Below are positions 4,800-62,269 of a DNA stretch of 64,000 nucleotides, in pieces. The notes under the pieces are model-generated. The model had not been told where the DNA came from and searched no databases. It worked only from the letters and a program-made list of their open reading frames with translations. The number at the start of each line of letters is the position of its first letter. Within the stretch, counting starts at the first letter, position 1. Source of the DNA: Candidatus Harrisonbacteria bacterium CG10_big_fil_rev_8_21_14_0_10_40_38 (GTDB taxonomy: Bacteria > Patescibacteriota > Minisyncoccia > UBA6257 > 1-14-0-10-40-38); assembly GCA_002773535.1 (NCBI GenBank), contig PFAZ01000001.1, forward strand, positions 154,806 to 218,805. Reading direction: 5' to 3'. Made by a program: the position numbers and the translations under genes.

Positions 4800-4859
4800 T
4801 TTTATTCCCATAATTCATTATTCTTAATTCATAATTCATATTTAAGGTATAATTAACTC

Positions 4860-46410: not shown

Positions 46411-46525
46411 ATGAATAGCTAAACTCTAGCAAAAAACCATTAACCAAGGAAAGGTACTTGCCATAAATTACAAAAAAGTATATACTCCAAAATAGTTCAA
46501 TTCCCAAGTCTATATGGAGCATGTC

Positions 46526-46666
46526 ATGGCAAGCGAAACAGAAACCAAAAAGACCATCCGAGAAAGAGTACAAGAAAAGCGAAAAAAAGGCAGGTCAAGC
46601 AATGGACGAATCATCTTCATCGTGGCTGTTTTCGTAATCTTTCTCCTTTATCTCATCACAAGATGA
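46526..46666 (+). CDS. small basic + single-TM protein (tentative)
   Basis: GGAG SD; MASETETKKTIRERVQEKRKKGRSSNGRIIFIVAVFVIFLLYLITR. Confidence 0.3.
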   Translation: MASETETKKTIRERVQEKRKKGRSSNGRIIFIVAVFVIFLLYLITR

Positions 46667-46735
46667 AGATGCGTACCCACAAGCCCGACGCGCGAACATC
46701 GGGTTTCCCTAACTTAAAAAAAGGAAGGGCTCCTC

Positions 46736-46921
46736 ATGTCACACAAAGACCTAAAACTTGGCCACGCCTCTGAACCACTCCCTAAAGAACTCATAGACAT
46801 ACTCAAAAAGAGAGGAAAGAAAGAAAAGAGAAAGAGATTAATAAAAATCGTTGCCGATATTGTCATCCTGGCTGTACTCATAGTTCTCCTCATAATCACA
46901 CTGAAAGGATACATCCTTTAA
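46736..46921 (+). CDS. small basic + single-TM protein (tentative), same architecture as 46526
   Basis: ...KKRGKKEKRKRLIKIVADIVILAVLIVLLIITL. Confidence 0.3.
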   Translation: MSHKDLKLGHASEPLPKELIDILKKRGKKEKRKRLIKIVADIVILAVLIVLLIITLKGYIL

Positions 46922-47053
46922 TCCAACAGTCTTTTCAACTAACCCCGATACACCGGCCTGCCATGCGCAGGCCCTTGTTTTTATCACTTATTACAAAACA
47001 ATAATTCTCTAAACAATCACTATAGTCGCCTTTTAACTCAAAGACCAACCACT

Positions 47054-47085
47054 TAGCAAATTTTGACGATCGTCAAAATTTGCTA
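47054..47085. repeat. 32-bp perfect palindrome TAGCAAATTTTGACGATCGTCAAAATTTGCTA (copy 1 of 3)
   Basis: Read directly; identical to the copy at 59966-59999; core TTTTGACGATCGTCAAAA shared with 59192-59235. Confidence 0.6.
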
Positions 47086-47219
47086 TGTAAAAACATTTTA
47101 AAAGAATAATCATCTTAGCACCCCGCTAAAACCGTTTTTTTCACATTTCACTATACCAACTTAAAAAAAGCCAGACATCTCAAGATGTCTGGTAACCACT
47201 CTAAGAAAAATTGCCTTAT

Positions 47220-47458
47220 TTATCCATTAGCGTCTCCACCTCGTTGATGATCAATATATTGCCGCAGATATTGGTAAATAGCTTCAAAGCCCACTTTTCT
47301 CCCCTTCGGTGTCGCTATTTCCGGCGGCCCAGAAATTCTAAATGTAAAAACATCAAGTTCGCCCCAATAATCTGGCGTGCAAAACATTCCAACGCTTCAC
47401 ACTCTTTCAACTGATAAAGGTAGAGGCTGTGTGTCAACTGTTGTTGATAGTCACTCAT
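47220..47458 (-). other. small-ORF region with two overlapping frames (possible frameshifted HicB/UPF0150-like gene) followed by a terminator
   Basis: Frame 1 is MSDYQQQLTHSLYLYQLKECEALEC... with a strong SD. Frame 2 is MFCTPDYWGELDVFTFRISGPPEIATPKGRKVGFEAIYQYLRQYIDHQRGGDANG. Terminator CCAGACATCTTGAGATGTCTGG+T8 on the minus strand at 47172-47200. Confidence 0.25.
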
Positions 47459-47717
47459 CAAAACTTTCCTCCAATAAGGTTAATATATTAAGTACCGATC
47501 AAAAATATAACACGTAACCCAAAAACTAGTCTACTGGACATTTTTCATTCATCTTTCATTCATTCTAACCACAAAAGCAATACAAAAATATTTTAAGAAG
47601 GTCTCGGATACATTCCGTTTAATCCAACAACATATTTCCTTCCTTTTTAGGTTTTAGTGAAATTCGATTAGAAATCAATTCATTGAACGAAAATTTCTTG
47701 TCGCAAATTTTATGGCC

Positions 47718-47748
47718 GGAAAACTCCCGCAAGGCGGGAGGTAAACGG
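47718..47748 (-). terminator. rho-independent terminator downstream of fusA
   Basis: On the minus strand: CTCCCGCCttgCGGGAG followed by TTTTCC. Confidence 0.5.
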
Positions 47749-47834
47749 GAGCCGGAAAATTTGCCAAGAAATTAAGAGAGATGAATATGATTTCTGAGAA
47801 TAGAACGTTTCCTAAAAAGGAACGAAATATACGC

Positions 47835-49976
47835 CTACTTCTTTCCTTCCTTAATAAGCTCTGCAATATTTGCAGGAACTGGATCATAGTGAGAAAACTC
47901 CATAGTAAAGTTTCCTCTTCCCTGTGTCATGGATCTAAGTTTTGTAGCGTATCCAAACATTTCAGATAACGGAACAGAGCACTCGACAACTTTAAGACCA
48001 CCTATCCTATCTTCGAGAGATTCGATTTGCCCCCTCTTTGAAGATATGTCTCCTGTAATATCACCTAAAAATTCCTGTGGCATAGTAACCTGAATTTTCA
48101 TGATTGGCTCAAGCACAACCGGCTTTGCAAGTCTTGCAGCTTCCTGAAGAGCCATAGAACCGGCAACTTTGAATGCCATTTCGGACGAGTCAACTTCGTG
48201 ATAAGAACCGTCGTAAAGCGTAACTTTAACGTCGGTAAGCGGATAGCCCGCAACTACACCTTTTCCGAGAGCTTCTTTCACACCTTTTTCTACAGCAGGA
48301 ATAAATTCATTTGGAATAGAACCGCTTTTAATTTCATTCACAAATTCAAATCCAGTACCACGTTCAAGTGGATCAATCTTAATCTTTGCGTGACCATACT
48401 GACCACGTCCTCCTGACTGCTTGATGTATTTTCCTTCAGACTCGGCATGCTCACGAACAGTTTCTTTATAAGCAACCTGTGGTCTGCCGACATTCGCCTC
48501 AACAGAAAATTCTCTCTTCATACGATCAACAAGAACTTCAAGTTGGAGCTCTCCCATACCGGCGATAATTGTCTCACCCGTATCAGCATCACCACTAACC
48601 CTAAACGTAGGATCTTCTTCAGAAAGTCTCTTAAGAGCAATACCCATTTTCTCTTGGTCGGCTTTCGTCTTAGGTTCAATACGCATAGCGATAACCGGTT
48701 CTGGGAAAGTAATTTTTTCCAAAATAATTCCTTCATCAGGATCGCAAAGAGTATCACCGGTTGTAGTACCCTTAAGTCCTACTATTGCGCCGATATCCCC
48801 TGATGGAATCCTCTCCACCTCCTCACGCTTATTGGCATGAAGTCGCACCATACGCCCAACTCTTTCCTGAACATTTTTTGTAGAGTTCAAAATATAACTT
48901 CCTTTTTTAATAACACCCGAATAAACCCTAAAGAATGTAAGTGACCCCACAAACGGATCAGTCGCAACTTTAAAGGCGAGAGCAGAAAATGGCTCTTCGT
49001 CATTTGGGTGTCTCTCAACAGGAGCATTCGTTGAAACATCAAAACCTTTTACAGGTGGAAGATCTGCAGGAGAAGGAAGGTAGTCAACAACAGCATCGAG
49101 AACCTGTTGAACACCTTTATTCTTTAATGCAGAACCCGTAAGTACAGGAATTATCTGCAACGATATAGTTGCATTTCGTAGAGCTTTCTTTAAATCCTCT
49201 AAAGCTGGTTCTTTACCTTCAAGATAACCGCTCAAAAGCGCATCGTCTGTTTCAACAATTTTTTCGATAAGCTCTTTTCGCCTTGTTTCGTACTCCGCTT
49301 TTACAGATTCAGGAATCTCTTTTTCTACAATAGTCTCACCATGATCTCCTTCAAAACCATAAGCAACACCCGCAAGAAGATCAACAATTCCTTCGAGATT
49401 ACTCTCTGAACCGATTGGAATCTGAATCGGAATAGCGTTTGGGTTTAATCTTGTCTGAATCGATTTCAAACTGTTTTCAAAGCTTGCGCCCATTCGATCA
49501 AGTTTATTTATAAAACAAATACGCGGAACATGAAATTCATCAGCGTACCTCCAGTTCGTTTCGCTTTGCGGCTCAACACCTGCAACGCCATCAAAAACAA
49601 CAACCGCGCCATCTAAAACACGGAGTGATCTTTTTACCTCAACGGTAAAATCAATGTGACCCGGAGTATCAATAAGGTTCACGCGATACTCGTGCTGTTT
49701 CTTAAGTTCATCTGGAGAAATTTCTGAATTTATTCTTCTTATATAATTAGGAATCCAAAAACATGTCGTAGCAGCAGCGGTGATTGTGATACCACGTTCA
49801 CGCTCCTGTTCCATCCAGTCCATAACGGTGTCGCCGGTATGAACCTCACCGATTTTATGAGACATTCCTGTATAAAAAAGAATACGCTCAGAAACAGTCG
49901 TTTTACCTGCGTCTATGTGCGCAATAACACCGATGTCTCTAACTCTTTCAATTGGATATTTTCTATCTACAGACAT
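47835..49976 (-). CDS. fusA: translation elongation factor G
   Basis: [10 protein letters not shown]1; 713 aa; in the str operon. Confidence 0.95.
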
Positions 49977-50039
49977 AAAATAAATTTAAAATAAAACCGC
50001 CACGCACAATTTACATGCCACATTCAACATTTCACACGT

Positions 50040-50507
50040 TTACCACGAGAAGTGCGCAAAAGCTCTGTTTGCCTCCGCCATTCTGTGAGTATCTTGTTTT
50101 TTCTTGATGGCCGATCCTTCGTTTTTTGCCGCAAGAATTATTTCTTCTGCGAGTTTCTCTGCCATTGGCTTACCTTTTCTATTCCGAGCTGCAGCAATTA
50201 TCCAACGCACAGAGAGCATAAACCGCCTCTCGGGTCTTACCTCACGAGGAACTTGGTAGTTCGCGCCACCAACTCTCCTTGAAGCCACTTCTACCGCAGG
50301 AGCGGCATTTTCAAGAGCTTTTTCAAATAATGACAACGGCTGTTCATTTGTTTCTTTTTGAATTAATTCAAAAGCATCATACAAAACTTTTCTTGCAACC
50401 GCTTTCTTTCCATCTTCCATTAAATAATTTACAAAACGCGAAACAGCCACACTTTGATAAGTAAGGTCTGATTCAAAATCTCTCTTATAATTTCTTTTCT
50501 TTCGCAT
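50040..50507 (-). CDS. rpsG: 30S ribosomal protein S7
   Basis: MRKKRNYKRDFESDLTYQS...; 155 aa. Confidence 0.95.
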   Translation of the reverse strand: MRKKRNYKRDFESDLTYQSVAVSRFVNYLMEDGKKAVARKVLYDAFELIQKETNEQPLSLFEKALENAAPAVEVASRRVGGANYQVPREVRPERRFMLSVRWIIAAARNRKGKPMAEKLAEEIILAAKNEGSAIKKKQDTHRMAEANRAFAHFSW

Positions 50508-50519
50508 ATCTTGAGTTTA

Positions 50520-50930
50520 TTATTTTGGCTTTTTGGCTCCGTATTTTGATCGCTTCTGTCTCCTTGCCTCTACTCCGGCAGTATCGAGAACACCACGAAC
50601 GATGTGATACCTTACACCCGGAAGATCTTTCACTCTTCCGCCTCGTAGCAATACCACAGAGTGCTCCTGAAGATTATGTCCTTCACCGGGGATATAAGCT
50701 GTTACCTCATAACCATTTGTTAATCGAACTCTCGCAATCTTTCGAAGCGCAGAGTTTGGCTTTTTTGGTGTCTGAATTTTTACCTGAAGGCAAACACCTC
50801 TCTTAAGCGGAGAAGAAGAATCAACCGGCTTATTCAAAATTGTATTGTAATAACGCCGAAGCGCTGGAGCTTTCGGTTTTACGATCGTTCGTTTCCGGCC
50901 CTTCCGGATTAACTGCCTGATTGTTGCCAT
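50520..50930 (-). CDS. rpsL: 30S ribosomal protein S12
   Basis: [13 protein letters not shown]...KPNSALRK...; 136 aa. Confidence 0.95.
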
Positions 50931-50997
50931 AAATCAAATAAAAAGCGACCCAATGTCGTGAAAAGATGATAACAAATAACCGAAAACACTGTCAACC

Positions 50998-51627
50998 TCA
51001 AAAAGGAGCCCCTACGATAAGAGCGTATATCCAAAAAATTACAGGCGCTATAAAGTTAAAACCGGTCACAAAAAGCAGGAAAATGATAATAAAAAAGCCA
51101 TACTGGGAAAGAAATGCCTCGATGTGAGAATAACCTGGCGGTAGAATAGCAAAAAAAACCTTAGAGCCATCGAGTGGCGGGATGGGTATCAGGTTAAAAA
51201 CTGCAAGAGCGATATTCACTAAAACTATATGAGTGAAAGCAGTGAAGATAAAAGAATCAAAAGCTAAAAAATCTGTAGCAGAAAGAATTCTTAAAAAAGC
51301 CCCAAAAACCAGCGCCAAAGAAATATTACTAAGAGGCCCTGCCACGCTTATCAAAGCCGCCCCTTTTTTAGGATCCCTAAGGTTGTAAGGATTATACGGA
51401 ACCGGTTTTGCCCAACCGATAATCGGCGCGTGTGATATTGCAAGAATAAGTGGCAAAAGAAAAGAACCTATAGGATCAAGATGTTTCAATGGATTTAGCG
51501 TAAGCCGCCCCATATCGCGAGCAGTTGTGTCCCCAAGTCGCAAAGCAACAACCCCATGAGATACCTCATGGATCATAACGGAAAATATTAAAACTATTAG
51601 CTCAAATGCAAGGAAAGTATATTCCAT
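50998..51627 (-). CDS. M50-family (site-2 protease-like) membrane metalloprotease
   Basis: HEVSHG HExxH within TM1; four TMs; 209 aa. Confidence 0.7.
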   Translation of the reverse strand: MEYTFLAFELIVLIFSVMIHEVSHGVVALRLGDTTARDMGRLTLNPLKHLDPIGSFLLPLILAISHAPIIGWAKPVPYNPYNLRDPKKGAALISVAGPLSNISLALVFGAFLRILSATDFLAFDSFIFTAFTHIVLVNIALAVFNLIPIPPLDGSKVFFAILPPGYSHIEAFLSQYGFFIIIFLLFVTGFNFIAPVIFWIYALIVGAPF

Positions 51628-51712
51628 ACTTGTTTATCCACAACGCCCAAACTAGGCAATGTTACAATACACTCTATCATATAAATACAAACTCATTAAC
51701 CTTTATAAACCT

Positions 51713-52063
51713 ATGGAAATACAAGAAGTCTTTTCGAGAATGCATGATAAAAACAAAGAGCTAAGAGAATTAAAAAAGATATACAAAGACACATTAGCCT
51801 CAAATTCAAATTATCAAGAACTACTAGAAAAACTAAAAGAAATAAAGGAGCAAAAGAAAAGAACTGAAACAATTGTCTCTAATGAACTAGCCACTGAAGT
51901 TGAAAAAATCGAAACCCTTAAACGCGGCATTGCGGATGACAAACAGCTTCTCTCCGATATGTCATGGAACTCTATCGTCAAAGGTGAATCAATCTCTGTA
52001 GTGGGACCCGATGAACACCCCTACGACCCAATCTTTGCTGTCCGCTTCCAGAAAAGAAAATAA
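51713..52063 (+). CDS. hypothetical coiled-coil protein
   Basis: Internal ATG at 51713 chosen; Lys/Glu-rich helical. Confidence 0.4.
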   Translation: MEIQEVFSRMHDKNKELRELKKIYKDTLASNSNYQELLEKLKEIKEQKKRTETIVSNELATEVEKIETLKRGIADDKQLLSDMSWNSIVKGESISVVGPDEHPYDPIFAVRFQKRK

Positions 52064-52081
52064 AACCATTCACCGCAGTCG

Positions 52082-52900
52082 TTACAAAGGGCTCTTAATA
52101 TTTTTTAATCGTGGGTTTGTTACCTGCGCATATACTTGAGTTGTCCTTATACTGCTATGTCCAAGTAGCTCCTGTACATACCGAACATCTGTCCCATTTT
52201 CCAACAAATGAGTAGCAAAAGAGTGTCGTAAAGAATGAAACGTTGCGGGTTTGATAACTTTTGCCCCCACCAAACTTTTACGAAACATTTTTTGTAAAGA
52301 TGTAGCTGTTAGTTTACCGCCACGATTAGAGGAAAAAATAAAATCATCGGCACGTTTTCCCGCAATGATATTACGGAGGGAATCTTGCAGTTTTTCCGAC
52401 ATAACGCTGATCCGGTCTTTTTTACCTTTTGCTCCTTTGATATACACGGTGAATTCGTCAATACTTAGATCGGCGACTTTTAACTGCACAACTTCGCTTA
52501 CCCGCAGTCCGGACGCGTAACTCAAGGCGATCATTATCCGATATTTTGCGTTTTCGGTGGCGTTGATAATTTTCTCAATTTCTGCCCGCGACAACACGAT
52601 TGGTAGTTTTTTATTTTTTTTTGCAAATTTTAGGTCAATCTTCTGCGGATCTTTTAAAACTTCTGCATATAAAAATTTTACCGCGTTAAGTGCAAGGTTG
52701 ATTGTCTGCGGAGATTGTCCACGTTTGTGTTTATCAAGTAAAAATTCCTCAATTGCTTTTTGTTTGTCTTTGACTCCTTCTCTCTTAGAAAAGCTGATAT
52801 ACTCCTTTATGTAGAGCATGTATGCGTTGCGGGTCTTTAGGGAGTAGTTGCGGAGCCTCAAAACCCGCTCGGTCTTATCCAAAATATTCTCCATAAACAA
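52082..52900 (-). CDS. tyrosine recombinase (XerC/XerD/phage-integrase family)
   Basis: C-terminal catalytic box HSLRHSFATHLLENGTDVRYVQELLGHSSIRTTQVYAQV (R...HxxR...Y). Confidence 0.85.
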   Translation of the reverse strand: MFMENILDKTERVLRLRNYSLKTRNAYMLYIKEYISFSKREGVKDKQKAIEEFLLDKHKRGQSPQTINLALNAVKFLYAEVLKDPQKIDLKFAKKNKKLPIVLSRAEIEKIINATENAKYRIMIALSYASGLRVSEVVQLKVADLSIDEFTVYIKGAKGKKDRISVMSEKLQDSLRNIIAGKRADDFIFSSNRGGKLTATSLQKMFRKSLVGAKVIKPATFHSLRHSFATHLLENGTDVRYVQELLGHSSIRTTQVYAQVTNPRLKNIKSPL

Positions 52901-53093
52901 AGAATAGCAAAAGTTTGCATAACAAACAAGATATTGTTACAAAATAGGTTTGTAGTTCGGATAAAAACCAGTTGTACGAAATTCCGACTAGTAAATGAAG
53001 TGGTTTGAAAGTTTGTGCAAACAAAAAAGCACGTCTTTGAAACAAACTTCTATTAGTAACCCGTCGGAACTGTCGTACAACACTGTGTATCTG

Positions 53094-53633
53094 GTTCCAC
53101 AAATGAGAAATTCTTGATTATTTTTTTACATTTTGATTGGGCTTTTTACAATTTTTGCTCTCAAAAAGAAAAAGGCCACCGATGTTACTCGATGGCCTTG
53201 GGTTGGGATCTGCTCGTGGCGGGCGGGCGGCTCACCACATCTCGTCCATCTCCCGCTGGGCGAGCCTGTTCGCGGGGATGAGTCCCCACTCCTCGGGCAT
53301 GTCGTCTCCGACGTCCAGCCCGGGGCAGTCGGGCTTCTCGACAAAGATGTGTTTGCCATTGACCTCGCGAACGAGGCCGCCACCTTGGGTTCCCCAGACG
53401 GGGTAGCTGTAGGTACGATCCGTGCTCATGTCGATCCTCCTCGAGGGTTTGTGAAAGAGCAGATCCCGCCAACAGCGAGAGTCTGACCTTTCGGGTGAAA
53501 AGTAGCTTCATGCACTGTTGAACTCTAAATAATAGCATTTTTGAGAGCGTCTGTCAATAGTCCAGCAACACAAAAATTGCAAAAAGCCCTAAATTAAGGT
53601 AAAATAATCAAGAATTTCTCATTTGTTTCACCC
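53094..53633. mobile_element. TIR-bounded ~540-bp cassette with high-GC core (MITE-like passenger element or recombinase-associated invertible segment)
   Basis: Left end 53094-53157 and the reverse complement of right end 53571-53633 share ACAAATGAGAAATTCTTGATTATTTT (26/26) and GGGCTTTTT(A/G)CAATTTTTG. The interior, about 53160-53560, is strikingly GC-rich relative to the flanks. Confidence 0.45.
53232..53429 (-). CDS. 65-aa protein encoded in the high-GC core
   Basis: ATG preceded by a GAGGAGGATCGAC SD. Codons are almost all G/C-ending (MSTDRTYSYPVWGTQGGGLVREVNGKHIFVEKPDCPGLDVGDDMPEEWGLIPANRLAQREMDEMW). Confidence 0.5.
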   Translation of the reverse strand: MSTDRTYSYPVWGTQGGGLVREVNGKHIFVEKPDCPGLDVGDDMPEEWGLIPANRLAQREMDEMW

Positions 53634-53709
53634 AAATTTTGCTTCGTTTCACTCCGCAAAACTTCAGATACACAGGAACGTTATGCAAAATTCAGCTAAC
53701 CACGCAAAC

Positions 53710-54351
53710 CTAAACCTCAAAACTTTCTCCCACCTCCGGCACTAAAAACTCAACCCCCTTCTCTCTCAAAAGTTTTTCTGCCGTTCTATAAAACGGCTCC
53801 GGTCTCAAAAGAATCGCGTCATGAATGGGAAAACACTTTTTTGGCGCGACAGATCTCGCAAATTCAACCACCTCCGAAATCTTCGCCCACGGCGCCGCAA
53901 TCGGTAAAGCTAAAACCGAAACCGGCTTTTTTGGCGCTAAAAAAACATCACCGGGAAAATACAATTTTTCCGCAACAAGAAAACCAATATTTTTTACCAA
54001 AGGGATTTCAGGATGAATCTCGGCATGCACCTCTCCAAATCCTTCAACTAAAACATCGGCAATTTTTATACTCTCGCCAGAACCGGAAACCGAACAAGGT
54101 ATACCCTCTTCAGTAAGAATTTTACAAACAGACTCATTTGAAAAAATTTTAACCTCCGAATTTTTCAATACAATCCCTTTTACAAAAGGAATATTTATGT
54201 GATCAGCATGCTCATGAGAGATAAGAACTGCTGAAATATTTGAAACTTCTTCAAACCCTTCCGTAAATACACCAGGGTCGGTTATGATCCTTGCCGCACC
54301 TTCCTCGATAAGCAGGCACGAATGACCAAGTTTTGTAACTTTCATACTCAA
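53710..54351 (-). CDS. MBL-fold metallo-hydrolase
   Basis: ISHEHADHINIP HxHxDH motif. Confidence 0.75.
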   Translation of the reverse strand: MSMKVTKLGHSCLLIEEGAARIITDPGVFTEGFEEVSNISAVLISHEHADHINIPFVKGIVLKNSEVKIFSNESVCKILTEEGIPCSVSGSGESIKIADVLVEGFGEVHAEIHPEIPLVKNIGFLVAEKLYFPGDVFLAPKKPVSVLALPIAAPWAKISEVVEFARSVAPKKCFPIHDAILLRPEPFYRTAEKLLREKGVEFLVPEVGESFEV

Positions 54352-54557
54352 ATAATATCACGCACAGCACAAACCCTCAAAAACCCTTGTTTTCTAAATC
54401 AAATCCCAAAAACGAGAAACTTCACTTGACAATACATCAGATACTATAATAGTATATGACCAAGCTTTTGGATCGCCCGAAAGCAAGTATAGTTCTTTCG
54501 AAGGAGAACCACTCATATGAACGCCGCGAAGAGCTACTAGATTTTTGAGGTCACATC

Positions 54558-54608
54558 GGCCTGACCCCTTACGTCATCACTGCAGAGTGAAACGTAAGGG
54601 GTCTTTTT
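54558..54608 (+). terminator. intrinsic terminator-like hairpin
   Basis: GACCCCTTACGT...ACGTAAGGGGTC followed by TTTTTTT; followed by a TTGACA...TATAAT-like promoter at about 54618-54650. Confidence 0.45.
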
Positions 54609-54681
54609 TTCAAAAATTTGACAAAAAATTAAAAGTATATAGAATATAATCAGCCCTGAAAACAAACTCAACTGAGGTAAA

Positions 54682-54840
54682 AATGTTATTAGTAAAAAGA
54701 AAAAAAACCGATGAATTATCGGGTCGATCAAAAAATTGGATCACCGATCACGTAATTGTTTTTTTCACCCTATTATTCATTTCAATAACTACAATCACTA
54801 CATTGTTTTTTGGCATAACGTTTATATTCTCCAAAATATA
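54682..54840 (+). CDS. small membrane protein (tentative)
   Basis: GAGGT SD; MLLVKRKKTDELSGRSKNWITDHVIVFFTLLFISITTITTLFFGITFIFSKI. Confidence 0.35.
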
Positions 54841-54857
54841 AAAATACCCCAAAACCA

Positions 54858-54890
54858 AAACCCCGTCTTCACAAGAAGTCGGGGTTTTTA
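54858..54890 (+). terminator. rho-independent terminator
   Basis: AAAACCCCGTCTTCACAAGAAGTCGGGGTTTTTA. Confidence 0.6.
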
Positions 54891-54945
54891 GCTATCAGTT
54901 ATTAGTTTTCGGTTTTCAGTTGTAAGTTGTAAGTCTTAAGTTATC

Positions 54946-55902
54946 TTATGGCTGCAAAATATCCTCTATTCTTCCATCAATCGAAATCACAACACTGTTT
55001 ACAGTTGAAAACTGTTTCAAAGTTTCCGTGATCTGCGAACGAATTGCAGCTACGCGACATGAACCACCAACCTGCGAATCAAGTTGTGAGTTAAGATCAA
55101 CTTTTGCAACTCCATTTGAAATACTAAGTGACTGGACTACAACACCAGGATTGATTGCCGTTTCATATCCTGCCGCCGTTTCAGATGCTGAAGGCCCTTT
55201 AAACAATTCCTCAAGAGCGGCTTTACCAACTCCAGAAGTCTTTGGGATGGCACGTGTTACAGAAAAGACTTTTTCGCATGTAGTATCCTGTGGCGCAAGT
55301 TTCGAATTTGTAAAGTATGCAACAACACTCATCGTCGAAGTCGCAGCAGAAACAGTTGGCTTCGGTGAAGATGTTTGTTGCTGAACTGGTGTTCCTTTTG
55401 GAGACTCTCCCATTGCTTCCTCACCGATTACTAGCGGTATTCGAAGTTCGTCATCGTTCTCAGGAAGTCCGGACGGATTATCCTTCTGAAGAACTAGCGT
55501 TGCATCACCCGTATATGATTCATCAAATTCCAGCGTAGCTGTAAATGGAACAAAATCTTCTGTCATCCATTCACCTTGTGCTTCCGCTGGTGTCACCGCA
55601 AGCTCGTTTCCATCCGAGTCAAGAAGTTTTACAGGGAAAGATGCCTCAAAATACCAAGTGCCCCTAGCTTCACCATCAACAGTAAGCGGACTGGAAACAG
55701 TTGCTCCTGATTCCGGCGACGTTACACGAATAAGATCAGACTTATCCGTGTCCGGAGAAGAATTGAATAATAGATATCCAAGGCCAATGAAAACAATAAG
55801 ACCTCCGATAACATATAAAGTACTCTTTGTGTTTTGGTTCATATGCCTTTTGTTAATGATTAATTCCCCTCTAATGTGCCTCACATCAACCCTTCCTGTC
55901 AA
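54946..55902 (-). CDS. membrane-anchored secreted protein (Ser/Thr-rich linker)
   Basis: TM anchor STLYVIGGLIVFIGLGYLLF followed by a beta-rich ectodomain; 318 aa. Confidence 0.5.
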   Translation of the reverse strand: MTGRVDVRHIRGELIINKRHMNQNTKSTLYVIGGLIVFIGLGYLLFNSSPDTDKSDLIRVTSPESGATVSSPLTVDGEARGTWYFEASFPVKLLDSDGNELAVTPAEAQGEWMTEDFVPFTATLEFDESYTGDATLVLQKDNPSGLPENDDELRIPLVIGEEAMGESPKGTPVQQQTSSPKPTVSAATSTMSVVAYFTNSKLAPQDTTCEKVFSVTRAIPKTSGVGKAALEELFKGPSASETAAGYETAINPGVVVQSLSISNGVAKVDLNSQLDSQVGGSCRVAAIRSQITETLKQFSTVNSVVISIDGRIEDILQP

Positions 55903-55976
55903 ACCTTGAAAAATATCTCAAATGTTTCATAAAATAACACCCTCACAAATAAAAATAAACTTCAAAACATAAATAT

Positions 55977-56210
55977 TTATTCAGATACTTCGTCTTCCAG
56001 CTCTTTTTTGATTTCTTCAAACTCATTTTGGACTTCTTCCATTTCAGTCCTCAAAGCTTTCACAAGCTCAGCGCCTGTCTTTGCTTTTTCAAGACCTGCT
56101 TCAAGATCAACATCATCACTGTCCTCAAACCAAGAAACAATATCCTCAAGTTTTTTTAAATTATTTAAAAGTTCTTCACGTTTCTTTTTCATAAGATTTT
56201 TTTTCATCAA
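55977..56210 (-). CDS. xseB: exodeoxyribonuclease VII small subunit
   Basis: 77-aa helical acidic protein with the LEDIVSWFEDSDDVDLEAGLEKAKTGAELVKAL pattern; overlaps the xseA end. Confidence 0.7.
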   Translation of the reverse strand: MMKKNLMKKKREELLNNLKKLEDIVSWFEDSDDVDLEAGLEKAKTGAELVKALRTEMEEVQNEFEEIKKELEDEVSE

Positions 56211-57321
56211 TATTTAAAACCGACGCCGAAAATTCTCCCCTATGAAGTTTTACCAAAACTTCATCTTGCGCTTTCAAAGCATTTGCCTGTTTCAAAATTT
56301 TACCAAATTGAAAAACGAGGCTATATCCACGTTTCAGATTTTCTTCCGGATTTACCGCTTTCAGATATGCCTCTTTTGCATCCAGTCTTTCTTTCAAAAG
56401 AAGAACTTTATTCTCAAATCCCGAAATTATCGTGTCAGATGATCTGTTTATTTTCAGAAGCACAGAATCAACAACATAGCCAATTGCTCCCGATAATCTC
56501 TCGGCATATCTGGGAAACATGGACAAGACTCTCTCCCAGCTCTGATTTACAAGATGAGCCGCTGCGGTAGGAGTAGAGACAGAAACGTCAGCCACAAAAG
56601 ACGCAATAGGAACATCAACGTGGTGCCCTATAGCGGCTATAGTCGGTATCTTCGACGCAAACACAGCGCGCGCAGTAACTTCGTTATCAAATGCTTGCAA
56701 ACTCTCAAGACTCCCGCCACCACGCATTATTATTAGCGCATCAATATCTTTTCTTTGTGAATTAAACCAATTTATTCCCGAGACAATCTGTCCCATCGCC
56801 TCCCTTCCTTCAACTCGAGCATCATAAAGATAAACCTTTATTCCAAGAGCTCTTAGATTATGCGCAAAATCTTTTGAAACAACACCACCTAAAGAAGTTA
56901 TTATGCCGACACTTGATATGCACTCCGGAAGTTCTCGCTTTTGTTCAAACAATCCCTCTTTTTTGAGTTGACGTTTTAAAAGCTCATAAGCTTGTCTAAG
57001 AGATCCCTCGCCAATAGGTTCGATAGAGCTAACAAAAAAACCAAAATTCCCGCTTCGTTTTGTTATATGTGGCCGTCCCCCAACTTTCACAACCATCCCC
57101 TCAGAAAGCGCCACTCCGATCCTATTAAAAACCGCTGATGACAAAAAACACGAAAGCGTCCCATCCCCCTCCTGATCCCTTAGAGTCAACGAAACCCACT
57201 GCCCACTCTGTCTAAAAGAAGAAATTTCACCTACGACAAATATCCCCGAAAATTCCCGCAGAAGTTCCGAAACACGATCAAGAAAAACCCCTACAGAATA
57301 AGTTCGAAAATCGTCATTCAT
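56176..57321 (-). CDS. xseA: exodeoxyribonuclease VII large subunit
   Basis: N-terminal OB-fold (FVVGEISSF) and central catalytic region; 381 aa. Confidence 0.8.
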   Translation of the reverse strand: MNDDFRTYSVGVFLDRVSELLREFSGIFVVGEISSFRQSGQWVSLTLRDQEGDGTLSCFLSSAVFNRIGVALSEGMVVKVGGRPHITKRSGNFGFFVSSIEPIGEGSLRQAYELLKRQLKKEGLFEQKRELPECISSVGIITSLGGVVSKDFAHNLRALGIKVYLYDARVEGREAMGQIVSGINWFNSQRKDIDALIIMRGGGSLESLQAFDNEVTARAVFASKIPTIAAIGHHVDVPIASFVADVSVSTPTAAAHLVNQSWERVLSMFPRYAERLSGAIGYVVDSVLLKINRSSDTIISGFENKVLLLKERLDAKEAYLKAVNPEENLKRGYSLVFQFGKILKQANALKAQDEVLVKLHRGEFSASVLNIDEKKSYEKET

Positions 57322-57327
57322 AAAATA

Positions 57328-57582
57328 TTAGTTTTGCCCTTCTTCTGTTTTTTCTTCCTCTTCGATTGGGGAAACACGAACCCTCTCACCGGGTTTTGGT
57401 TTTTCAGGTATAACAAAGACAAGTAAAATATACGCGAGTATCCCTGGAAAAACTCCGGTTATTATGCTCAAAAATACATACCCCGCTCTAATCAAAATAG
57501 GATCAACCCCAAAGTATTCTCCAATGCCACCCATGACACCTGAAAAAACTTTATTGTCCTTGCTTTTATATAACTTTTTCAT
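57328..57582 (-). CDS. PspC-domain membrane protein
   Basis: VFSGVMGGIGEYFGVDPILIRAGYVFLSI matches the PspC motif. Confidence 0.65.
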   Translation of the reverse strand: MKKLYKSKDNKVFSGVMGGIGEYFGVDPILIRAGYVFLSIITGVFPGILAYILLVFVIPEKPKPGERVRVSPIEEEEKTEEGQN

Positions 57583-57700
57583 AGTTTTAGTTTTTATTTT
57601 TCAGATTTAAGTCATCATTTAGATCTATTAACAATTTCCAATATAACCCATAATTTATGTTTTTAGTTGTAAGTTATAGGTTGTAAGTTATTCCACCATT

Positions 57701-58432
57701 CTATGCTCCAATGCTATGCGAGGCAAGAAAAGACACGATAATCGAAGCAGTTTCCGCTCTTAAAGTAAGTTCTCCTAAACTAACAAAAAAAAGTTTCCCA
57801 GGTGTCCTCGATGTATAAGATTTAGCAACCACAACCTCATTTGAAGACCACCCTCCCTCGGGACCCACGAAGACACCTATATTTTTTTTATTTCTTAAAA
57901 TTTTCTTAGAAAAAAAATCTTCCACAGAAACATCAAAAAAAAGATTTATATCATGCCGCGAAGACATCTGCAGAGCATGGGGCAAAGACATTGTCGGTAA
58001 AAGTTTTGGCACATACGCTCTCCCAGATTGCTCGGCTGCCTCCTGGATAATCTTTTGAATCCTCTCCTCCTTAAATCTTAATTTTTCTGTCCGGTCACTA
58101 AGTATGGGCACAATCTCAGCTACACCACATTCAACCGCTTTCTGAACTGCAAACTCAAAATGATCATGCTTAATAAGCGACGCATAAAGAGTAATAAGCC
58201 GCTCCGTCTCACGATCAACATTTTCATGAGAGAGCGCAACAAGCTCAACACCATCTCTAAGAAATGATGTGATCCTTGCAGTCACTTCAACTCTTGTATT
58301 GTGAGCAAGTACGAGGCTATCTCCTTCGCGAAGTCTCAACACGTCTTTTACTTGATGACGAAAAGAATCATCGGTTATTTTTATAACCGACTGTGATAAA
58401 TCAAACTCAGCAAAAAACCTATGCAGTCTCAT
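57701..58432 (-). CDS. rsmE: 16S rRNA (uracil1498-N3)-methyltransferase
   Basis: MRLHRFF start, PUA-like N-terminus and C-terminal SPOUT fold; 243 aa. Confidence 0.75.
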   Translation of the reverse strand: MRLHRFFAEFDLSQSVIKITDDSFRHQVKDVLRLREGDSLVLAHNTRVEVTARITSFLRDGVELVALSHENVDRETERLITLYASLIKHDHFEFAVQKAVECGVAEIVPILSDRTEKLRFKEERIQKIIQEAAEQSGRAYVPKLLPTMSLPHALQMSSRHDINLFFDVSVEDFFSKKILRNKKNIGVFVGPEGGWSSNEVVVAKSYTSRTPGKLFFVSLGELTLRAETASIIVSFLASHSIGA

Positions 58433-58454
58433 AAAACCGCTTTACTAAGAAAAA

Positions 58455-58694
58455 TCACTTTTCTCCGACGTGAAGCAACCTCGAAAGCTCTGCTTGATCA
58501 AAACCAACAACTATATTGCCATCAACATCGATAACTGGCACACCAAGCTGACCTGATTTATTTATCATCTCATCACGCGCTTTTTCATCAATCGCAACAT
58601 CTTTCTCTTCATATTTCACTTCGTTTTTCTTAAAAAACTCTTTTGCCATCTTGCAATATGCGCAAGTTGGAGTTGTGTAAATTGTAACGCTCAT
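58455..58694 (-). CDS. glutaredoxin-like protein (NrdH/YruB type)
   Basis: TPTCAYCKMAKEFF CxxC; 79 aa. Confidence 0.8.
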   Translation of the reverse strand: MSVTIYTTPTCAYCKMAKEFFKKNEVKYEEKDVAIDEKARDEMINKSGQLGVPVIDVDGNIVVGFDQAELSRLLHVGEK

Positions 58695-58767
58695 AAATTT
58701 AAATTTAATTGGAAAAATAAAACGACCTTTCCCAAATCAAGATAATTTTAATACAAAATGAAAAAAA

Positions 58768-59058
58768 TCAAAACCCAAACTTTTCCTTTGGCTGTTCCGC
58801 CGCAGTAACTGGCCCAAACTTTTCTTCATATATCTTCATGTTTTCAGAAAGAGCATGAAGCATCCTTTTTACATGTGCTGGGTTCATAACAACACGTGAA
58901 GCAAGAACTCCTTGGTTTCCCACTACGTTAAAAAAATCCATTACAAACTCTTCACCTGTATGCATCACCTGCATAATGTTTGAATACACACCTTTAAGGT
59001 CTGCATCCGTCGCTCTGATTTGAATATTGTGATTATGTTGTTGTTTATTTTGTTCCAT
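58768..59058 (-). CDS. DUF3467-family protein
   Basis: Internal ATG at 59058; the ...NIMQVMHTGEEFVMDFFNV... pattern. Confidence 0.55.
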   Translation of the reverse strand: MEQNKQQHNHNIQIRATDADLKGVYSNIMQVMHTGEEFVMDFFNVVGNQGVLASRVVMNPAHVKRMLHALSENMKIYEEKFGPVTAAEQPKEKFGF

Positions 59059-59191
59059 AAGAAAAACATTACACGAAAACAGGGGAAATTTAAACAAAAA
59101 AAATCAAATCCAAAATTCCCAAAAAATTCCAAATCCAACACCTCAAAAAAACAAACAAAAATAACCAAACCATCACCCACCTCACACACAA

Positions 59192-59235
59192 CCCACCTAA
59201 CAGTTTTTGACGATCGTCAAAAACTGTTAGGTGGG
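59192..59235. repeat. 44-bp perfect palindrome CCCACCTAACAGTTTTTGACGATCGTCAAAAACTGTTAGGTGGG + TTTT (copy 3, variant flanks)
   Basis: Read directly. Shares the TTTTGACGATCGTCAAAA core with the other two copies, but the arms differ and are still self-complementary. Confidence 0.6.
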
Positions 59236-59270
59236 TTTTCCTCAACTATAAATCTCGCCCCTTCCTTTTT

Positions 59271-59825
59271 TCAAGCACTGCTTTCCCTGCCCTCTTTCAA
59301 AAGTTCTGTAAATCTATCTTTGAGTTTCTTTAGTTTTGGGCTTATTACAACCTGACAATAGGGTTTAGAAGAATTGTTTTTATAATACTCCTGATGATAC
59401 CCCTCTGCTTTATAAAAATGATCCAATGGCCTTACTTCTGTAACCACGTCTCCCTCTTCTTCTTTTGAAGCGTCTAATTCCTCAATAAACTTCTCGGCTT
59501 CTTCTTTTTGACTCTCGGTTGTGTAAAAAATAGCTGACCTGTATTGAGTGCCCACATCAGCCCCTTGTTGATTCAACGTCGTTGGGTCATGCGTAGCAAA
59601 AAATACAGTCAGCAAATCCCTATAAGAAATCACTGCCGGATCATACTCAATCCGTATCACTTCGGCATGCCCCGTCTTACCGCTCGAAACTTCCTCATAA
59701 GTCGGGTTTTCTGTATGCCCACCGGCATATCCACTCGTAACAGAATGCACCCCTTTCAGTTCCCCAAAAACTGCTTCAGTACACCAAAAACATCCACCTC
59801 CAAAAATTGCAATTTCTAAATTCAT
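59271..59825 (-). CDS. msrA: peptide methionine sulfoxide reductase MsrA
   Basis: GGGCFWCTEAVF active-site motif; ends with TGA at the expected length. Confidence 0.9.
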   Translation of the reverse strand: MNLEIAIFGGGCFWCTEAVFGELKGVHSVTSGYAGGHTENPTYEEVSSGKTGHAEVIRIEYDPAVISYRDLLTVFFATHDPTTLNQQGADVGTQYRSAIFYTTESQKEEAEKFIEELDASKEEEGDVVTEVRPLDHFYKAEGYHQEYYKNNSSKPYCQVVISPKLKKLKDRFTELLKEGRESSA

Positions 59826-59965
59826 ATAAAAAATATAACTCGAAACAAAAAAACAAAAAAGAGGATGAAAGTAAGAGCAAAAATAAATAAAGCAAAATCA
59901 AACAAAACGACCAAAAGCTTAAAGCAAAAAATCTTAAACACCAAAACTCACCAGAAAAACCCTAC

Positions 59966-59999
59966 CTAGCAAATTTTGACGATCGTCAAAATTTGCTAG
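59966..59999. repeat. 34-bp perfect palindrome CTAGCAAATTTTGACGATCGTCAAAATTTGCTAG (copy 2)
   Basis: Read directly; between the end of the lexA operon and the msrA start. Confidence 0.6.
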
Positions 60000-60883: not shown

Positions 60884-61555
60884 TTAATAACTTGAATAAA
60901 GCGGCACTATATCGAGATCACCTTTCTGTGGCATACGAATCACATCGATAACTCTACCAAATATTCTATAATCGCGCTGAAGTATGATTGGTTTATATTG
61001 TGGATCCGAAGAAACCGGATGTAAAACTATTGCATTATTAGCAAACTGTATTTTTTTGATAACTGCGCAGTGATCAACGATAGTAACGACAAGATCATTA
61101 TCAGAAACTGCCTGTGTAAGCTCAACAAGAACATAGTCGCTATCACACACACCGGCATCAACCATCGAGTCTCCTATCGCCTTAATACTAACAACATCAT
61201 CACGCCTTTTGCCACACAATAAGTCACTTGCAACACAAATAAAATCTCCAAAATTTCTCTCGGCAAGAACAGACACATTATCACAACCAGCAGAAGCAAT
61301 TACGGGAATATTTACAGTCTCAACTGCATCCGCATATTCTCGTAGTCGAATCCCACGAGCCGCATGCTTCTCACGAAATATAAGACCTTTCTTTTCTAAT
61401 ACAGACAAATATTGCGTCACAGCCCTCGGAGAAGATAAGTTCATGCAGGCCATGAGTTCATTAGTCGTCGGCGACTCACCGGTCTCGATAATGTGTTTTC
61501 TAAGCGACTCATAAAATCTTCTTTGTTTTTGCGTAAGTTGCGCGACTAATGACAT
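60884..61555 (-). CDS. lexA: LexA repressor (S24 peptidase)
   Basis: N-terminal wHTH; Ala-Gly cleavage site (SAGCDN); GDSM Ser and a C-terminal Lys. Confidence 0.85.
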   Translation of the reverse strand: MSLVAQLTQKQRRFYESLRKHIIETGESPTTNELMACMNLSSPRAVTQYLSVLEKKGLIFREKHAARGIRLREYADAVETVNIPVIASAGCDNVSVLAERNFGDFICVASDLLCGKRRDDVVSIKAIGDSMVDAGVCDSDYVLVELTQAVSDNDLVVTIVDHCAVIKKIQFANNAIVLHPVSSDPQYKPIILQRDYRIFGRVIDVIRMPQKGDLDIVPLYSSY

Positions 61556-61565
61556 AAATTTTAAT

Positions 61566-61597
61566 AAATATATAAATAAGCGACTATTTATATATTT
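61566..61597. promoter_or_regulatory. candidate LexA operator: AAATATATAAAT-N8-ATTTATATATTT
   Basis: 12-bp perfect inverted repeat 10-40 bp upstream of the lexA start. Confidence 0.35.
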
Positions 61598-61649
61598 ATA
61601 ATATCAAAATATATAAAACATATACATGTGAATAACTTAAATAAATGAC

Positions 61650-62250
61650 GTCCTCCCCGCACTCCCCTTCGGGATCGTGCGGGGTTTCCTTTAGGCTCCG
61701 CCACTCATGAGAATTCACCAGTTATCTCTTTTCCTCTATCAGCTATGTTTTGACGTTCAATATAGCGACGTATGGTTTCTTCGTTCAAGCCAACGGTAGA
61801 TACAAAGTATCCAGTACTCCACATATTTCCTTTTTCATATATCTGATCAATGAATTTGTACCGCTTCTTGAGTTCATGACTTGAGTATTGTTTTAACTTC
61901 TGTACGACTGAGGAAATGGCATATTTGGGTGGTATTTTCATGAGAATATGCACATGGTCATCACCTGTATTGATTTCATGAAAATACCAGTCTGGGTGGT
62001 AACGTCCTGTGCGGTACAAATTCTTGATCAGATCCGTACGAACATAGTGTTTGAGTATTTTTCTACGATATTTGGTCCCTCAGACTATATGATACTGAAT
62101 CTGATAAACACTGTGGTTTAACTGGCGAATTCTCATGCTAACAGCGTAGCACGCACCTGCGTGCTACGCTCATTCATCCCCGCACTGCGCTCTCTCATTT
62201 CAATAGATGTCTGTACCCTTGGTCGCGACGAGCTTGTGCGGGGTTTCCTG
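61650..62250 (-). mobile_element. IS200/IS605-family insertion sequence (tnpA only) with terminal hairpins
   Basis: Left hairpin CCCCGCAC...GTGCGGGG (61654-61682); 12-bp-stem hairpin AGCGTAGCACGC-acct-GCGTGCTACGCT (62143-62170); repeated GTGCGGGGTTTCCT at 61675 and 62236. Confidence 0.7.
61705..62136 (-). pseudogene. tnpA: IS200-type Y1 (HUH) transposase TnpA with an in-frame TGA replacing the conserved Trp
   Basis: Continuous frame from ATG 62136: MRIRQLNHSVYQIQYHIV-TGA-GTKYRRKILKHYV...GDDHVHILMKIPPKY...WSTGYFVSTVG...IRRYIERQ. The HUH motif and catalytic Tyr are intact. TGA lies at 62079-62081. Confidence 0.7.
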
Positions 62251-62269
62251 AGAGGAAGTAAAAAGCGGC

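Follow-up and report, generated by a model that had tools for sequence, protein, structure and literature searches.

CGATCG-centred palindromes beside genes for short PaaX-like proteins in Patescibacteria: putative operators around msrA in a Harrisonbacteria genome

We analysed a 64-kb stretch (hereafter, the window) of contig PFAZ01000001.1 from a Candidatus Harrisonbacteria genome, in which an 18-bp core, TTTTGACGATCGTCAAAA, occurs exactly three times, each time embedded in a perfect palindrome without a spacer between its arms. This report concerns these palindromes, their relatives in other genomes and a gene for a short PaaX-like protein located past the window end. The three sites are:

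47054-47085: site 1, a 32-bp perfect palindrome, TAGCAAATTTTGACGATCGTCAAAATTTGCTA, with the core at 47061-47078
59190-59237: site 2, a 48-bp perfect palindrome with halves AACCCACCTAACAGTTTTTGACGA and TCGTCAAAAACTGTTAGGTGGGTT (24-nt arms, 100% complementary) and the core at 59205-59222
59966-59999: site 3, a 34-bp perfect palindrome, CTAGCAAATTTTGACGATCGTCAAAATTTGCTAG, equal to the 32 bp of site 1 plus C/G, with the core at 59974-59991

Shuffling of the window yielded an expectation of 0.05 copies of TTTTGACGATCGTCAAAA, no shuffle reached three copies, and no further copies with three or fewer mismatches were found in the 64 kb. Sites 1-3 are also the only long perfect palindromes in the window, where a perfect palindrome of 32 bp is expected ~1e-5 times by our own calculation; given these shuffle counts and this rarity, a chance origin of the palindromes was rejected. 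A preliminary description of this DNA had recognised a three-copy family with a conserved 18-bp core and had noted that the copies at 47054-47085 and 59966-59999 are perfect palindromes of 32 and 34 bp sharing the same 32 bp, all of which stands. The third copy, which it had placed at 59192-59235 with a length of 44 bp, is in fact perfect over 48 bp, and its arms, rightly described as self-complementary, are not entirely different from those of the other copies: with the half-sites in register (CTAGCAAA-TTTTGACGA versus CTAACAGT-TTTTGACGA), five of the eight arm positions are identical, and the three differences between CTAGCAAA and CTAACAGT are mirrored in both arms. An extension, AACCCAC, is present in site 2 alone. 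The hexamer CGATCG at the centre of the core is found 10 times in the window, compared to 8.7 (mononucleotide) or 6.4 (Markov) expected, and GATC 228 times, compared to 223 expected; at these expected frequencies, a restriction-modification or HIP1-like signal was rejected.

No PaaX-like homologue was detected inside the window by tblastn or by hidden Markov model searches. However, whereas two public metagenome loci (L120 and L173; loci and proteins are numbered here with L and P, respectively) are identical to parts of the window, a third one, L188, found by look-up of the MsrA protein, continues the same contig past the window end. Converted to window-equivalent positions (69826 minus the L188 coordinate), it holds the following features:

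~66961-67545: PaaX-like gene COU07_01285 (protein P0001, 194 aa), beyond the window end
~66886-66917: perfect 32-bp palindrome TAGCAATTTTTGACGATCGTCAAAAATTGCTA with TAGCAAT arms, 44 bp past the COU07_01285 stop codon (centre 59 bp past it), followed by tRNA-Ser
~67577-67612: imperfect palindrome ~50 bp upstream of the COU07_01285 ATG

The two sites flanking COU07_01285 are 693 bp apart, and the gene lies ~3 kb past the window end and ~7.1 kb from msrA. The L188 protein sequence is identical to P0001 and to the protein of L081/L160, and is annotated at NCBI as a hypothetical protein of Candidatus Harrisonbacteria bacterium CG10_big_fil_rev_8. At least five sites fall within ~21 kb around COU07_01285, and the remaining 47 kb of the window contains none. 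A 148-kb JGI contig of the same organism (L186) ends just short of the PaaX-like gene. For an empty-site comparison, no close relative of the window organism above 45% protein identity was found.

Exact matches to the core were collected from one genome per species (66 loci) and from metagenomes (115 loci), which combined into 146 unique sites; the representative genomes scanned do not include that of the window organism, which the metagenome collection covers only in part. The sites are located mostly in Patescibacteria, namely, Saccharibacteria, Parcubacteria and unclassified metagenome-assembled genomes (MAGs) of the candidate phyla radiation (CPR), where the arms are perfect. In unrelated phyla, core matches extend the symmetry by only 0-1 bp and are found roughly at the number estimated for chance matches, ~9 in 596 Gb. 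Among the 146 unique sites, arm lengths are bimodal, with one group at 0-1 bp and a peak at 8-12 bp (maximum 19), and complementarity falls to the chance level (~30%) directly past the first mismatch, with no excess of G-T wobble. Arms are common to the sites of one genome and differ between genomes (for example, GCCAAAGT, TTGTCCAAGAT, ATCGTATA and TTACTAAAG), and in variant cores the invariant part is the centre GACGATCGTC or merely CGATCG. Related MAGs contain ~4-15 exact-core copies each.

The proteins encoded next to the sites point to a single partner. Clustering of 170 neighbour proteins identified only one strongly recurrent family, a PaaX-like protein of 160-210 aa, the gene of which adjoins sites in 13 of the genomes examined first and at 36 non-redundant loci overall. 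We examined the flanks of these 36 non-redundant genes for CGATCG-centred inverted repeats with at least 14 of 20 positions paired. Such a repeat is present upstream of the gene in 31/35 cases, its centre mostly lying 20-90 bp ahead of the ATG (~46 bp in most of the genes); it is present within 200 bp after the stop codon in 25/34 cases, often within a few bp of it, and on both sides in 23/33. On many contigs the PaaX-like gene is enclosed by two cores at a distance of 584-628 bp, and the symmetric sites span 34-42 bp. Sites consisting of the core only, without arms, still adjoin a PaaX-like gene (L025/L074, L085/L154 and L087/L124). The search for a cognate regulator that the preliminary description had proposed was thus successful, yielding a winged-helix/PaaX_M gene flanked by palindromes in the window organism as well as at the 36 non-redundant loci.

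We also performed the reverse test, in which seven homologues (P0003, P0006, P0007, P0010, P0012, P0022 and P0024; 27-38% identical to P0001) were chosen by protein similarity alone, so that loci selected by the core were avoided. In all seven, CGATCG-centred inverted repeats were found before the ATG and after the stop codon, with widely differing arms (for example, GTCAACATC, ATCAACAAC, ATGTATCAC and TTGTTACAAT). At the 14/20 cut-off, 6/7 homologues have the upstream repeat, with centres 35-47 bp before the ATG, and 5/7 the downstream one; the repeats below the cut-off are those on both sides in L185 and the downstream one in L182. Three of them (L192, L193 and L185) have bipartite symmetry: an outer block is paired, as are the central ~5 bp, but a linker of 4-5 bp is not. 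On the sequence level, this arrangement fits recognition by a dimeric protein and is not what a hairpin would require. Selection on a hairpin, which the preliminary description had taken to be implied by compensatory flanks, is accordingly not needed to explain them. In one assembly two PaaX-like paralogues are encoded, and the sites around each have an arm variant of their own. In several of these loci the surroundings stand out as well: the PaaX-like gene with its repeats is directly upstream of parA-parB in L192 (3001-5537) and directly upstream of ftsK in L193 (3001-5838) and L194 (1097-4239), a neighbourhood that possibly links it to chromosome segregation, and in L184 (~4810-4920) a 13-bp unit, GTGTCTTGTTTAG, is repeated in tandem in ~8 copies directly upstream of the putative operator of the PaaX-like gene.

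The PaaX-like protein consists of a winged helix and a Cas2-like PaaX_M domain (PF20803, E 6e-12 to 3e-21), with weaker matches to the PaaX N-terminal domain (PF07848) and to Cas2. In the AlphaFold2 model (mean predicted local distance difference test score, pLDDT, 77.6), a long linker helix leads from helices and the winged helix to a Cas2-like domain of beta-alpha-beta-beta-alpha-beta topology. Profile and fold searches of solved structures retrieved winged-helix regulators of the PadR, MarR and DtxR families, AspA, E. coli PaaX (8a39), Rv0674 of Mycobacterium tuberculosis (3kfw) and Cas2; the matches are weak at the level of the whole chain because the two domains are flexibly linked. The winged helix resembles the centromere-binding AspA of pNOB8 at E ~1e-3. 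In the Cas2-like domain, Asp128 (the FDIP aspartate), Arg137 and Arg141 are invariant. Because the scores against the NCBIfam PaaX equivalog TIGR02277 (19-31 bits) are far below its cut-off of 264.55, the CPR protein appears, from its sequence, to be a relative within the PaaX family and not PaaX itself; no paa genes were found in any locus examined. The family comprises 6,651 clusters (50% identity) at E <= 1e-3 and 4,916 at E <= 1e-10, its best matches are nearly all 160-220 aa long, and all members named by their source are labelled 'hypothetical protein'. CRISPR arrays and cas genes were not found in the loci examined, and a place of the palindromes among CRISPR repeats, or of the protein among Cas2 proteins, was rejected, given that the copies are solitary and the Cas2 similarity is limited to the PaaX_M domain.

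Taken together, comparative sequence evidence suggests that the palindromes are probably operators bound by a dimer of the short PaaX-family protein encoded ~3 kb beyond the window end. This interpretation is favoured because the site is conserved at a fixed distance from the start of the regulator's own gene, the standard ground for inferring autoregulation, because the independent reverse test gave the same result, and because the geometry matches that of the operator of Escherichia coli PaaX, the sole characterised relative, which is TGATTC-N27-GAATCA, 39 bp long, with specificity in the outer arms (PMC9493321); PaaX also represses its own promoter (PMC9493321). The CPR protein would form a homodimer joined via the Cas2-like domains on the invariant CGATCG centre, and the two winged helices would contact the lineage-specific outer arms ~10-20 bp from the centre, producing a symmetric site of ~34-42 bp. 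Arm changes would then appear mirrored, and the palindrome would end abruptly at the edge of the dimer footprint, for which the arm-length peak at 8-12 bp and the sharp ends are expected; lineage-specific arms would be explained by co-evolution with the winged helix, and the lack of sites with mixed arms by each arm type having its own homodimer. At its own gene, the protein is predicted to bind the site centred ~46 bp before the ATG, resulting in autorepression, with a second site just after the stop codon. We infer binding itself, the dimer geometry and any effect on msrA from this pattern.

The surroundings of the three sites, where gene strand is minus nearly without exception, include the following:

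46955-46983, plus strand: canonical intrinsic terminator, GGCCTGC-loop-GCAGGCC and a T-run, which ends small plus-strand open reading frames (ORFs), upstream of site 1
47162-47192, minus strand: canonical intrinsic terminator, CCAGACATCT-loop-AGATGTCTGG and T7, on the other side of site 1
58455-58694, minus strand: glutaredoxin-like gene (PF00462, E 3e-19), after the DUF3467 gene
58768-59058, minus strand: DUF3467 gene (PF11950, E 7.5e-20), the first gene downstream of site 2
59271-59825, minus strand: msrA, peptide methionine sulfoxide reductase (PF01625, E 1e-67), between sites 2 and 3

As the preliminary description had stated, msrA is bracketed by two copies, with centres at 59213 and 59982, that is, 769 bp apart. 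Site 2 is 34 bp beyond the msrA stop codon and ~132 bp ahead of the DUF3467 ATG; site 3 is 63 bp beyond the stop codon of a 272-aa gene (COU07_01225) and 141 bp ahead of the msrA ATG. From these positions, msrA would be a candidate target of sites 2 and 3, and the DUF3467 gene, possibly in one transcription unit with the glutaredoxin-like gene, a candidate target of site 2. A small glutaredoxin-like homologue also adjoins a site and the regulator gene in the Saccharibacteria locus L023. Site 1 lies in a long spacer, 71 bp past the plus-strand terminator and 77 bp past the minus-strand one, and because it is flanked by these two canonical terminators, the spacer is probably untranscribed. Under the operator interpretation, the protein would occupy sites 2 and 3 around msrA, site 2 being upstream of the DUF3467-glutaredoxin unit, too, as well as site 1 in its terminator-flanked spacer, and the occupied sites might repress, loop or insulate the msrA and DUF3467-glutaredoxin units.

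Several further features of this region were noted. The spacers 58700-59190 and 59826-59965 are G/T-rich and of low complexity on the coding (minus) strand, and spacers of the same style flank the PaaX-like gene in L188. A hexamer, TA(G/A)GT(A/G), is found 15 nt past TTGACG in the coding direction at 5/5 sites of the window organism. The possibility that TTGACG in the core is a -35 box with the -10 element in the arm suits a few loci (L010, L057 and L058) and was set aside as a general explanation; in the window genome, the spacing is 15 nt and the hexamers are poor (TAGGTA). Between the fusA stop (47835) and the strong minus-strand terminator (47192-47162), ~640 bp (47193-47834) contain no convincing ORF, in a place where tuf or rpsJ usually follows fusA; this segment, which had no Rfam match at E <= 1, may encode an RNA missing from the annotation or be the remains of a gene. 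Two plus-strand ORFs of 50 and 61 aa (46514-46921), opposite to the prevailing orientation and followed by the terminator at 46955-46983, each encode a product that is basic in its N-terminal part and has a hydrophobic helix at the C terminus; the two appear paralogous.

A number of observations weigh against a plain operator. The link between protein and sites is one of guilt by association, and no conserved regulon emerges: the neighbours encode TrpRS, SHMT, KsgA, MGMT, ClpP, TrxB, MsrA and others, the clustering of the 170 neighbour proteins gave, besides the regulator, clusters from only 2-3 lineages (SpoU methylase, TrxB, Fmt and others), and a thiol-redox theme (msrA, grx, trxB) is apparent in only ~3 genomes. 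The placement of the sites is odd for a classical operator as well. Against a background of 331 co-directional, 72 convergent and 65 divergent intergenic regions in the same loci, 46, 21 and 7 sites, respectively, were counted in the three classes, with 52, 11 and 10 expected (chi-square p = 0.007 by count and 0.001 by length), which amounts to an approximately twofold enrichment in convergent spacers and a depletion in divergent ones. Many sites, including site 1 of the window, are just beyond canonical terminators, and site 3 is >100 bp upstream of the likeliest -10 element of msrA, a distance that makes promoter occlusion unlikely there. Furthermore, the sites of one genome hardly differ from each other and depart little from perfect symmetry, an unusual pattern for a regulon; the near-perfect symmetry in this subfamily exceeds what dimer binding alone predicts, so that a structural or templating component may be involved. 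The window genome and FK3.bin40 each contain two arm types.

The arms, finally, changed in concert between two related MAGs, WY3.bin166 and FK3.bin40, in both of which the sites are spread across many contigs. Flanking DNA of the two is ~77% identical, and five site positions are orthologous; identical 11-bp arms are found at seven FK3.bin40 sites, three of which are orthologous to WY3.bin166 sites with other arms. Such concerted change implies conversion or copying between sites, or strong selection after a shift in specificity. The PaaX-like proteins of the two MAGs differ by Asn/Tyr in the putative recognition helix. Three WY3.bin166 copies (L026 5364, L036 6910 and L062 7921) share ~40-60 bp of extra flank on one side, so the duplicated unit in this MAG is larger than the palindrome, and in two of the three the shared flank on the other side holds a canonical terminator. 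Neither target-site duplications nor a TA target were consistent across copies.

One alternative holds that the same protein binds the sites, which would however form roadblocks or insulators where transcription units end, or serve as centromere-like or nucleoid-organising sites, and would not be promoter operators. We consider this unlikely, notwithstanding the enrichment of sites in convergent spacers, their frequent position right after terminators or stop codons, the bracketing of the regulator gene and of msrA on both sides, and the parS-like character of few, near-identical, long sites, of which at least five cluster in 21 kb in the window organism. The AspA-like winged helix (E ~1e-3) and the homologues directly upstream of parAB or ftsK also agree with this possibility. 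However, the upstream site ~46 bp before the ATG of most of the genes is the classic autoregulatory geometry, the sites of WY3.bin166 and FK3.bin40 are dispersed over many contigs, there is no evidence of spreading or of partner ATPases, and the likeness to AspA is confined to the generic winged helix. Another alternative, which seems quite improbable to us, takes the cue from repetitive extragenic palindromic (REP) sequences and REP-associated tyrosine transposases (RAYTs): the flanked gene would copy, homogenise or mobilise the palindromes, with the Cas2-like domain as the nuclease, and solo copies would survive in harmless spacers. A single gene bracketed by repeats, accompanied by solo copies of genome-specific sequence, indeed recalls RAYT/REP, as do the position of copies in 3' or post-terminator spacers without a regulon, the 11-bp arms shared by seven FK3.bin40 sites and replaced at three orthologous positions, which would point to copy-paste or conversion, the ~60 bp of extra flank common to three WY3.bin166 copies, the invariant Asp128, Arg137 and Arg141 in the Cas2-like domain, and the frequent location of sites at contig ends. 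Conversely, copy number is low (~4-15 per genome and at least five in the window organism), site positions are kept between genomes at ~77% nucleotide identity, neither target-site duplications nor empty sites were seen, and no transposase chemistry is known for the protein, the fold of which scores as that of a PaaX-type regulator; the core-only and the imperfect bipartite sites elsewhere suit binding sites better than mobile hairpins, and the hairpins of the IS200-like Y1 fragment in the window are unrelated. Membership in REP/RAYT proper was rejected on the grounds of perfect palindromes, the lack of GTAG, three copies per 64 kb and the lack of a cognate Y1 HUH transposase. A less conservative reading, to which we give a small chance, combines elements of the two: the protein would maintain, homogenise or disperse the palindromes, for example if it cleaved the CGATCG centre and the break were then repaired from a template, or would use them as boundary elements at gene ends. 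This would account for the near-perfect symmetry, the concerted replacement of arms and the post-terminator and convergent placement, for which the plain operator model does not.

The preliminary description had left the choice between a hairpin or cruciform and a protein operator; comparative evidence supports the operator and speaks against a terminator as the general explanation and against membership in REP. That the sites are intrinsic, possibly bidirectional, terminators or hairpins stabilising mRNA 3' ends, with an incidental conserved loop, is very unlikely, even though the hairpins that sites 1-3 form on either strand are highly stable (-19 to -37 kcal/mol, z -4.8 to -9.6), with -37 kcal/mol for the RNA hairpin of site 2. 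On the coding (minus) strand of site 3, the stem is lengthened by G-U pairs followed by GUUUUU and was flagged by the terminator scan; no other terminator lies between the upstream stop codon and the palindrome at sites 2 and 3, and the sites overall are biased to gene 3' ends. Yet terminator features were recognised on the coding strand only at site 3, at site 2 on the non-coding strand alone and at site 1 on neither strand, and of 86 gene-to-site relations, 12 have a T-run no more than 12 nt past the palindrome and 39 have one before it, after the upstream stop codon, on which basis an intrinsic terminator was rejected as the general explanation. Site 1 and many others are beyond canonical terminators, the stems are AT-rich with T/A tracts inside, the family displays neither G-U wobble nor gradual stem decay, and the invariant CGATCG centre across CPR classes and the link to a single gene family would be left unexplained. 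The sites had no Rfam match: at the gathering threshold, only three tRNAs were detected in the window, and around site 1 there were merely chance-level miRNA and snoRNA matches. We regard as extremely improbable that the sites are operators of another nearby regulator, such as the LexA homologue at 60884-61555 (an SOS box), a LexA-type repressor (PF01726 and PF00717) encoded 0.9 kb from site 3, despite the palindromic nature of LexA boxes. The core is missing upstream of lexA, where a different AT-rich palindrome is found at 61564-61599, LexA is not a recurrent neighbour among 182 loci, and recA, uvr and other SOS genes are not next to sites; with no site at lexA and no recurrence of LexA or repair genes, a LexA box was rejected.

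Other repeats in the window and in the related genomes were recorded alongside. The inverted repeat at 61564-61599, ATAAATATATAAATA-AGCGAC-TATTTATATATTTAT, directly upstream of the lexA homologue (minus strand), is itself a candidate LexA box or promoter element. An IS200/IS605-type remnant at 61600-62260 contains a truncated Y1 transposase ORF (61705-62019, minus strand; PF01797), a hairpin with 13-bp arms (62143-62170) and a GTGCGGGGTTTCCT motif repeated near both ends (~61676 and ~62238), of a sequence unrelated to the CGATCG palindromes; a link between the Y1 fragment and the sites was rejected, as its hairpins differ and it does not recur near sites. The CPR genomes that carry the sites also contain perfect or near-perfect palindromes of 42-46 bp without a CGATCG centre (L060 6264-6309, L008 1267-1308 and L057 2673-2718) and numerous canonical bidirectional terminators, the A and T tracts of which are complementary. 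G+C-rich contigs binned as Kiritimatiellae/Opitutales (L007, L052, L048 and L024) carry core palindromes with perfect 10-14-bp arms, and no PaaX-like gene was found in the fetched stretches of these loci; the copies could reflect a wider host range or mis-binning. Core sites are very often found ~50 bp or less from where a contig ends, as in many metagenome loci (for example, L095, L121, L122, L138, L148 and L177). Because the repeats probably interrupt assembly, copy numbers per genome are likely underestimated.

Among known systems, a PaaX-type repressor binding a long symmetric operator would be the closest in mode of action, and the architecture of the system described here resembles REP/RAYT. 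PaaX of E. coli and Pseudomonas shares the order of a winged helix followed by a Cas2-like PaaX_M domain, a long (~39-42 bp) symmetric operator specifically contacted in widely spaced outer arms (in CPR, the sites are predicted), and a site at the regulator's own putative promoter, from the position of which autoregulation is suggested in CPR. However, PaaX proper is a three-domain protein of ~300 aa that is found in a paa gene context and responds to phenylacetyl-CoA, whereas the CPR proteins, at 160-210 aa, lack the C-terminal PaaX_C domain and have no paa genes nearby, and their sites, often perfect, share an invariant CGATCG centre, bracket the gene and are biased to gene 3' ends. REP/REPIN-RAYT systems likewise combine a single-copy gene flanked by its own palindromes with dispersed, extragenic, mostly 3' solo copies, a species-specific repeat sequence and persistence of copies at orthologous positions. 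A REP, though, is an imperfect palindrome of 20-40 nt with a conserved 5' GTAG, present in hundreds of copies and often in inverted doublets, in contrast to the CPR palindromes, which lack GTAG/CTAC, are perfect and number tens at most, and the associated protein is winged-helix/Cas2-like and not Y1.

The lambda cI (OL/OR), lac, gal and deo systems also use two equivalent operators several hundred bp apart (584-769 bp here), but they loop, whereas tetramerisation or looping is without evidence here and the downstream site often abuts the stop codon. With parS/ParB and the pNOB8 AspA sites, the palindromes share the pattern of few near-identical long sites near the gene of the binding protein, along with the weak AspA similarity; unlike parS, they have no sequence relation to TGTTNCACGTGAAACA and no consistent partner ATPase, and a canonical ParAB exists separately. 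HIP1 of cyanobacteria (GCGATCGC) is a palindrome centred on CGATCG as well, but it is an 8-mer with thousands of copies per genome, whereas CGATCG is at background here and only the long palindromes matter. Literature searches with the core sequence returned only papers on the immunology of CpG oligonucleotides, and those for the short PaaX-like family in CPR or with palindromes, or for PaaX together with Cas2-like, returned nothing relevant.

To conclude, the palindromes and their recurrence are a solid observation, the cognate protein has good comparative support, and the physiological role of the pair, control of msrA included, is what the sequences would suggest. Patescibacteria/CPR encode very few transcription factors, and to our knowledge gene regulation in these bacteria is almost uncharted. 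The pairing of protein and palindrome, which recurs across many CPR/Patescibacteria, thus provides a rare testable handle on gene control in this group, and its signature, a CGATCG-centred palindrome of ~40 bp on both sides of the gene together with solo copies, allows sites to be predicted in thousands of uncultured genomes. The operator interpretation predicts that msrA and the DUF3467-glutaredoxin unit would be tied to the PaaX-like protein. If the less conservative reading were true, the palindromes and the protein would represent a new protein-associated palindromic repeat system built on the Cas2 fold and widespread in CPR.

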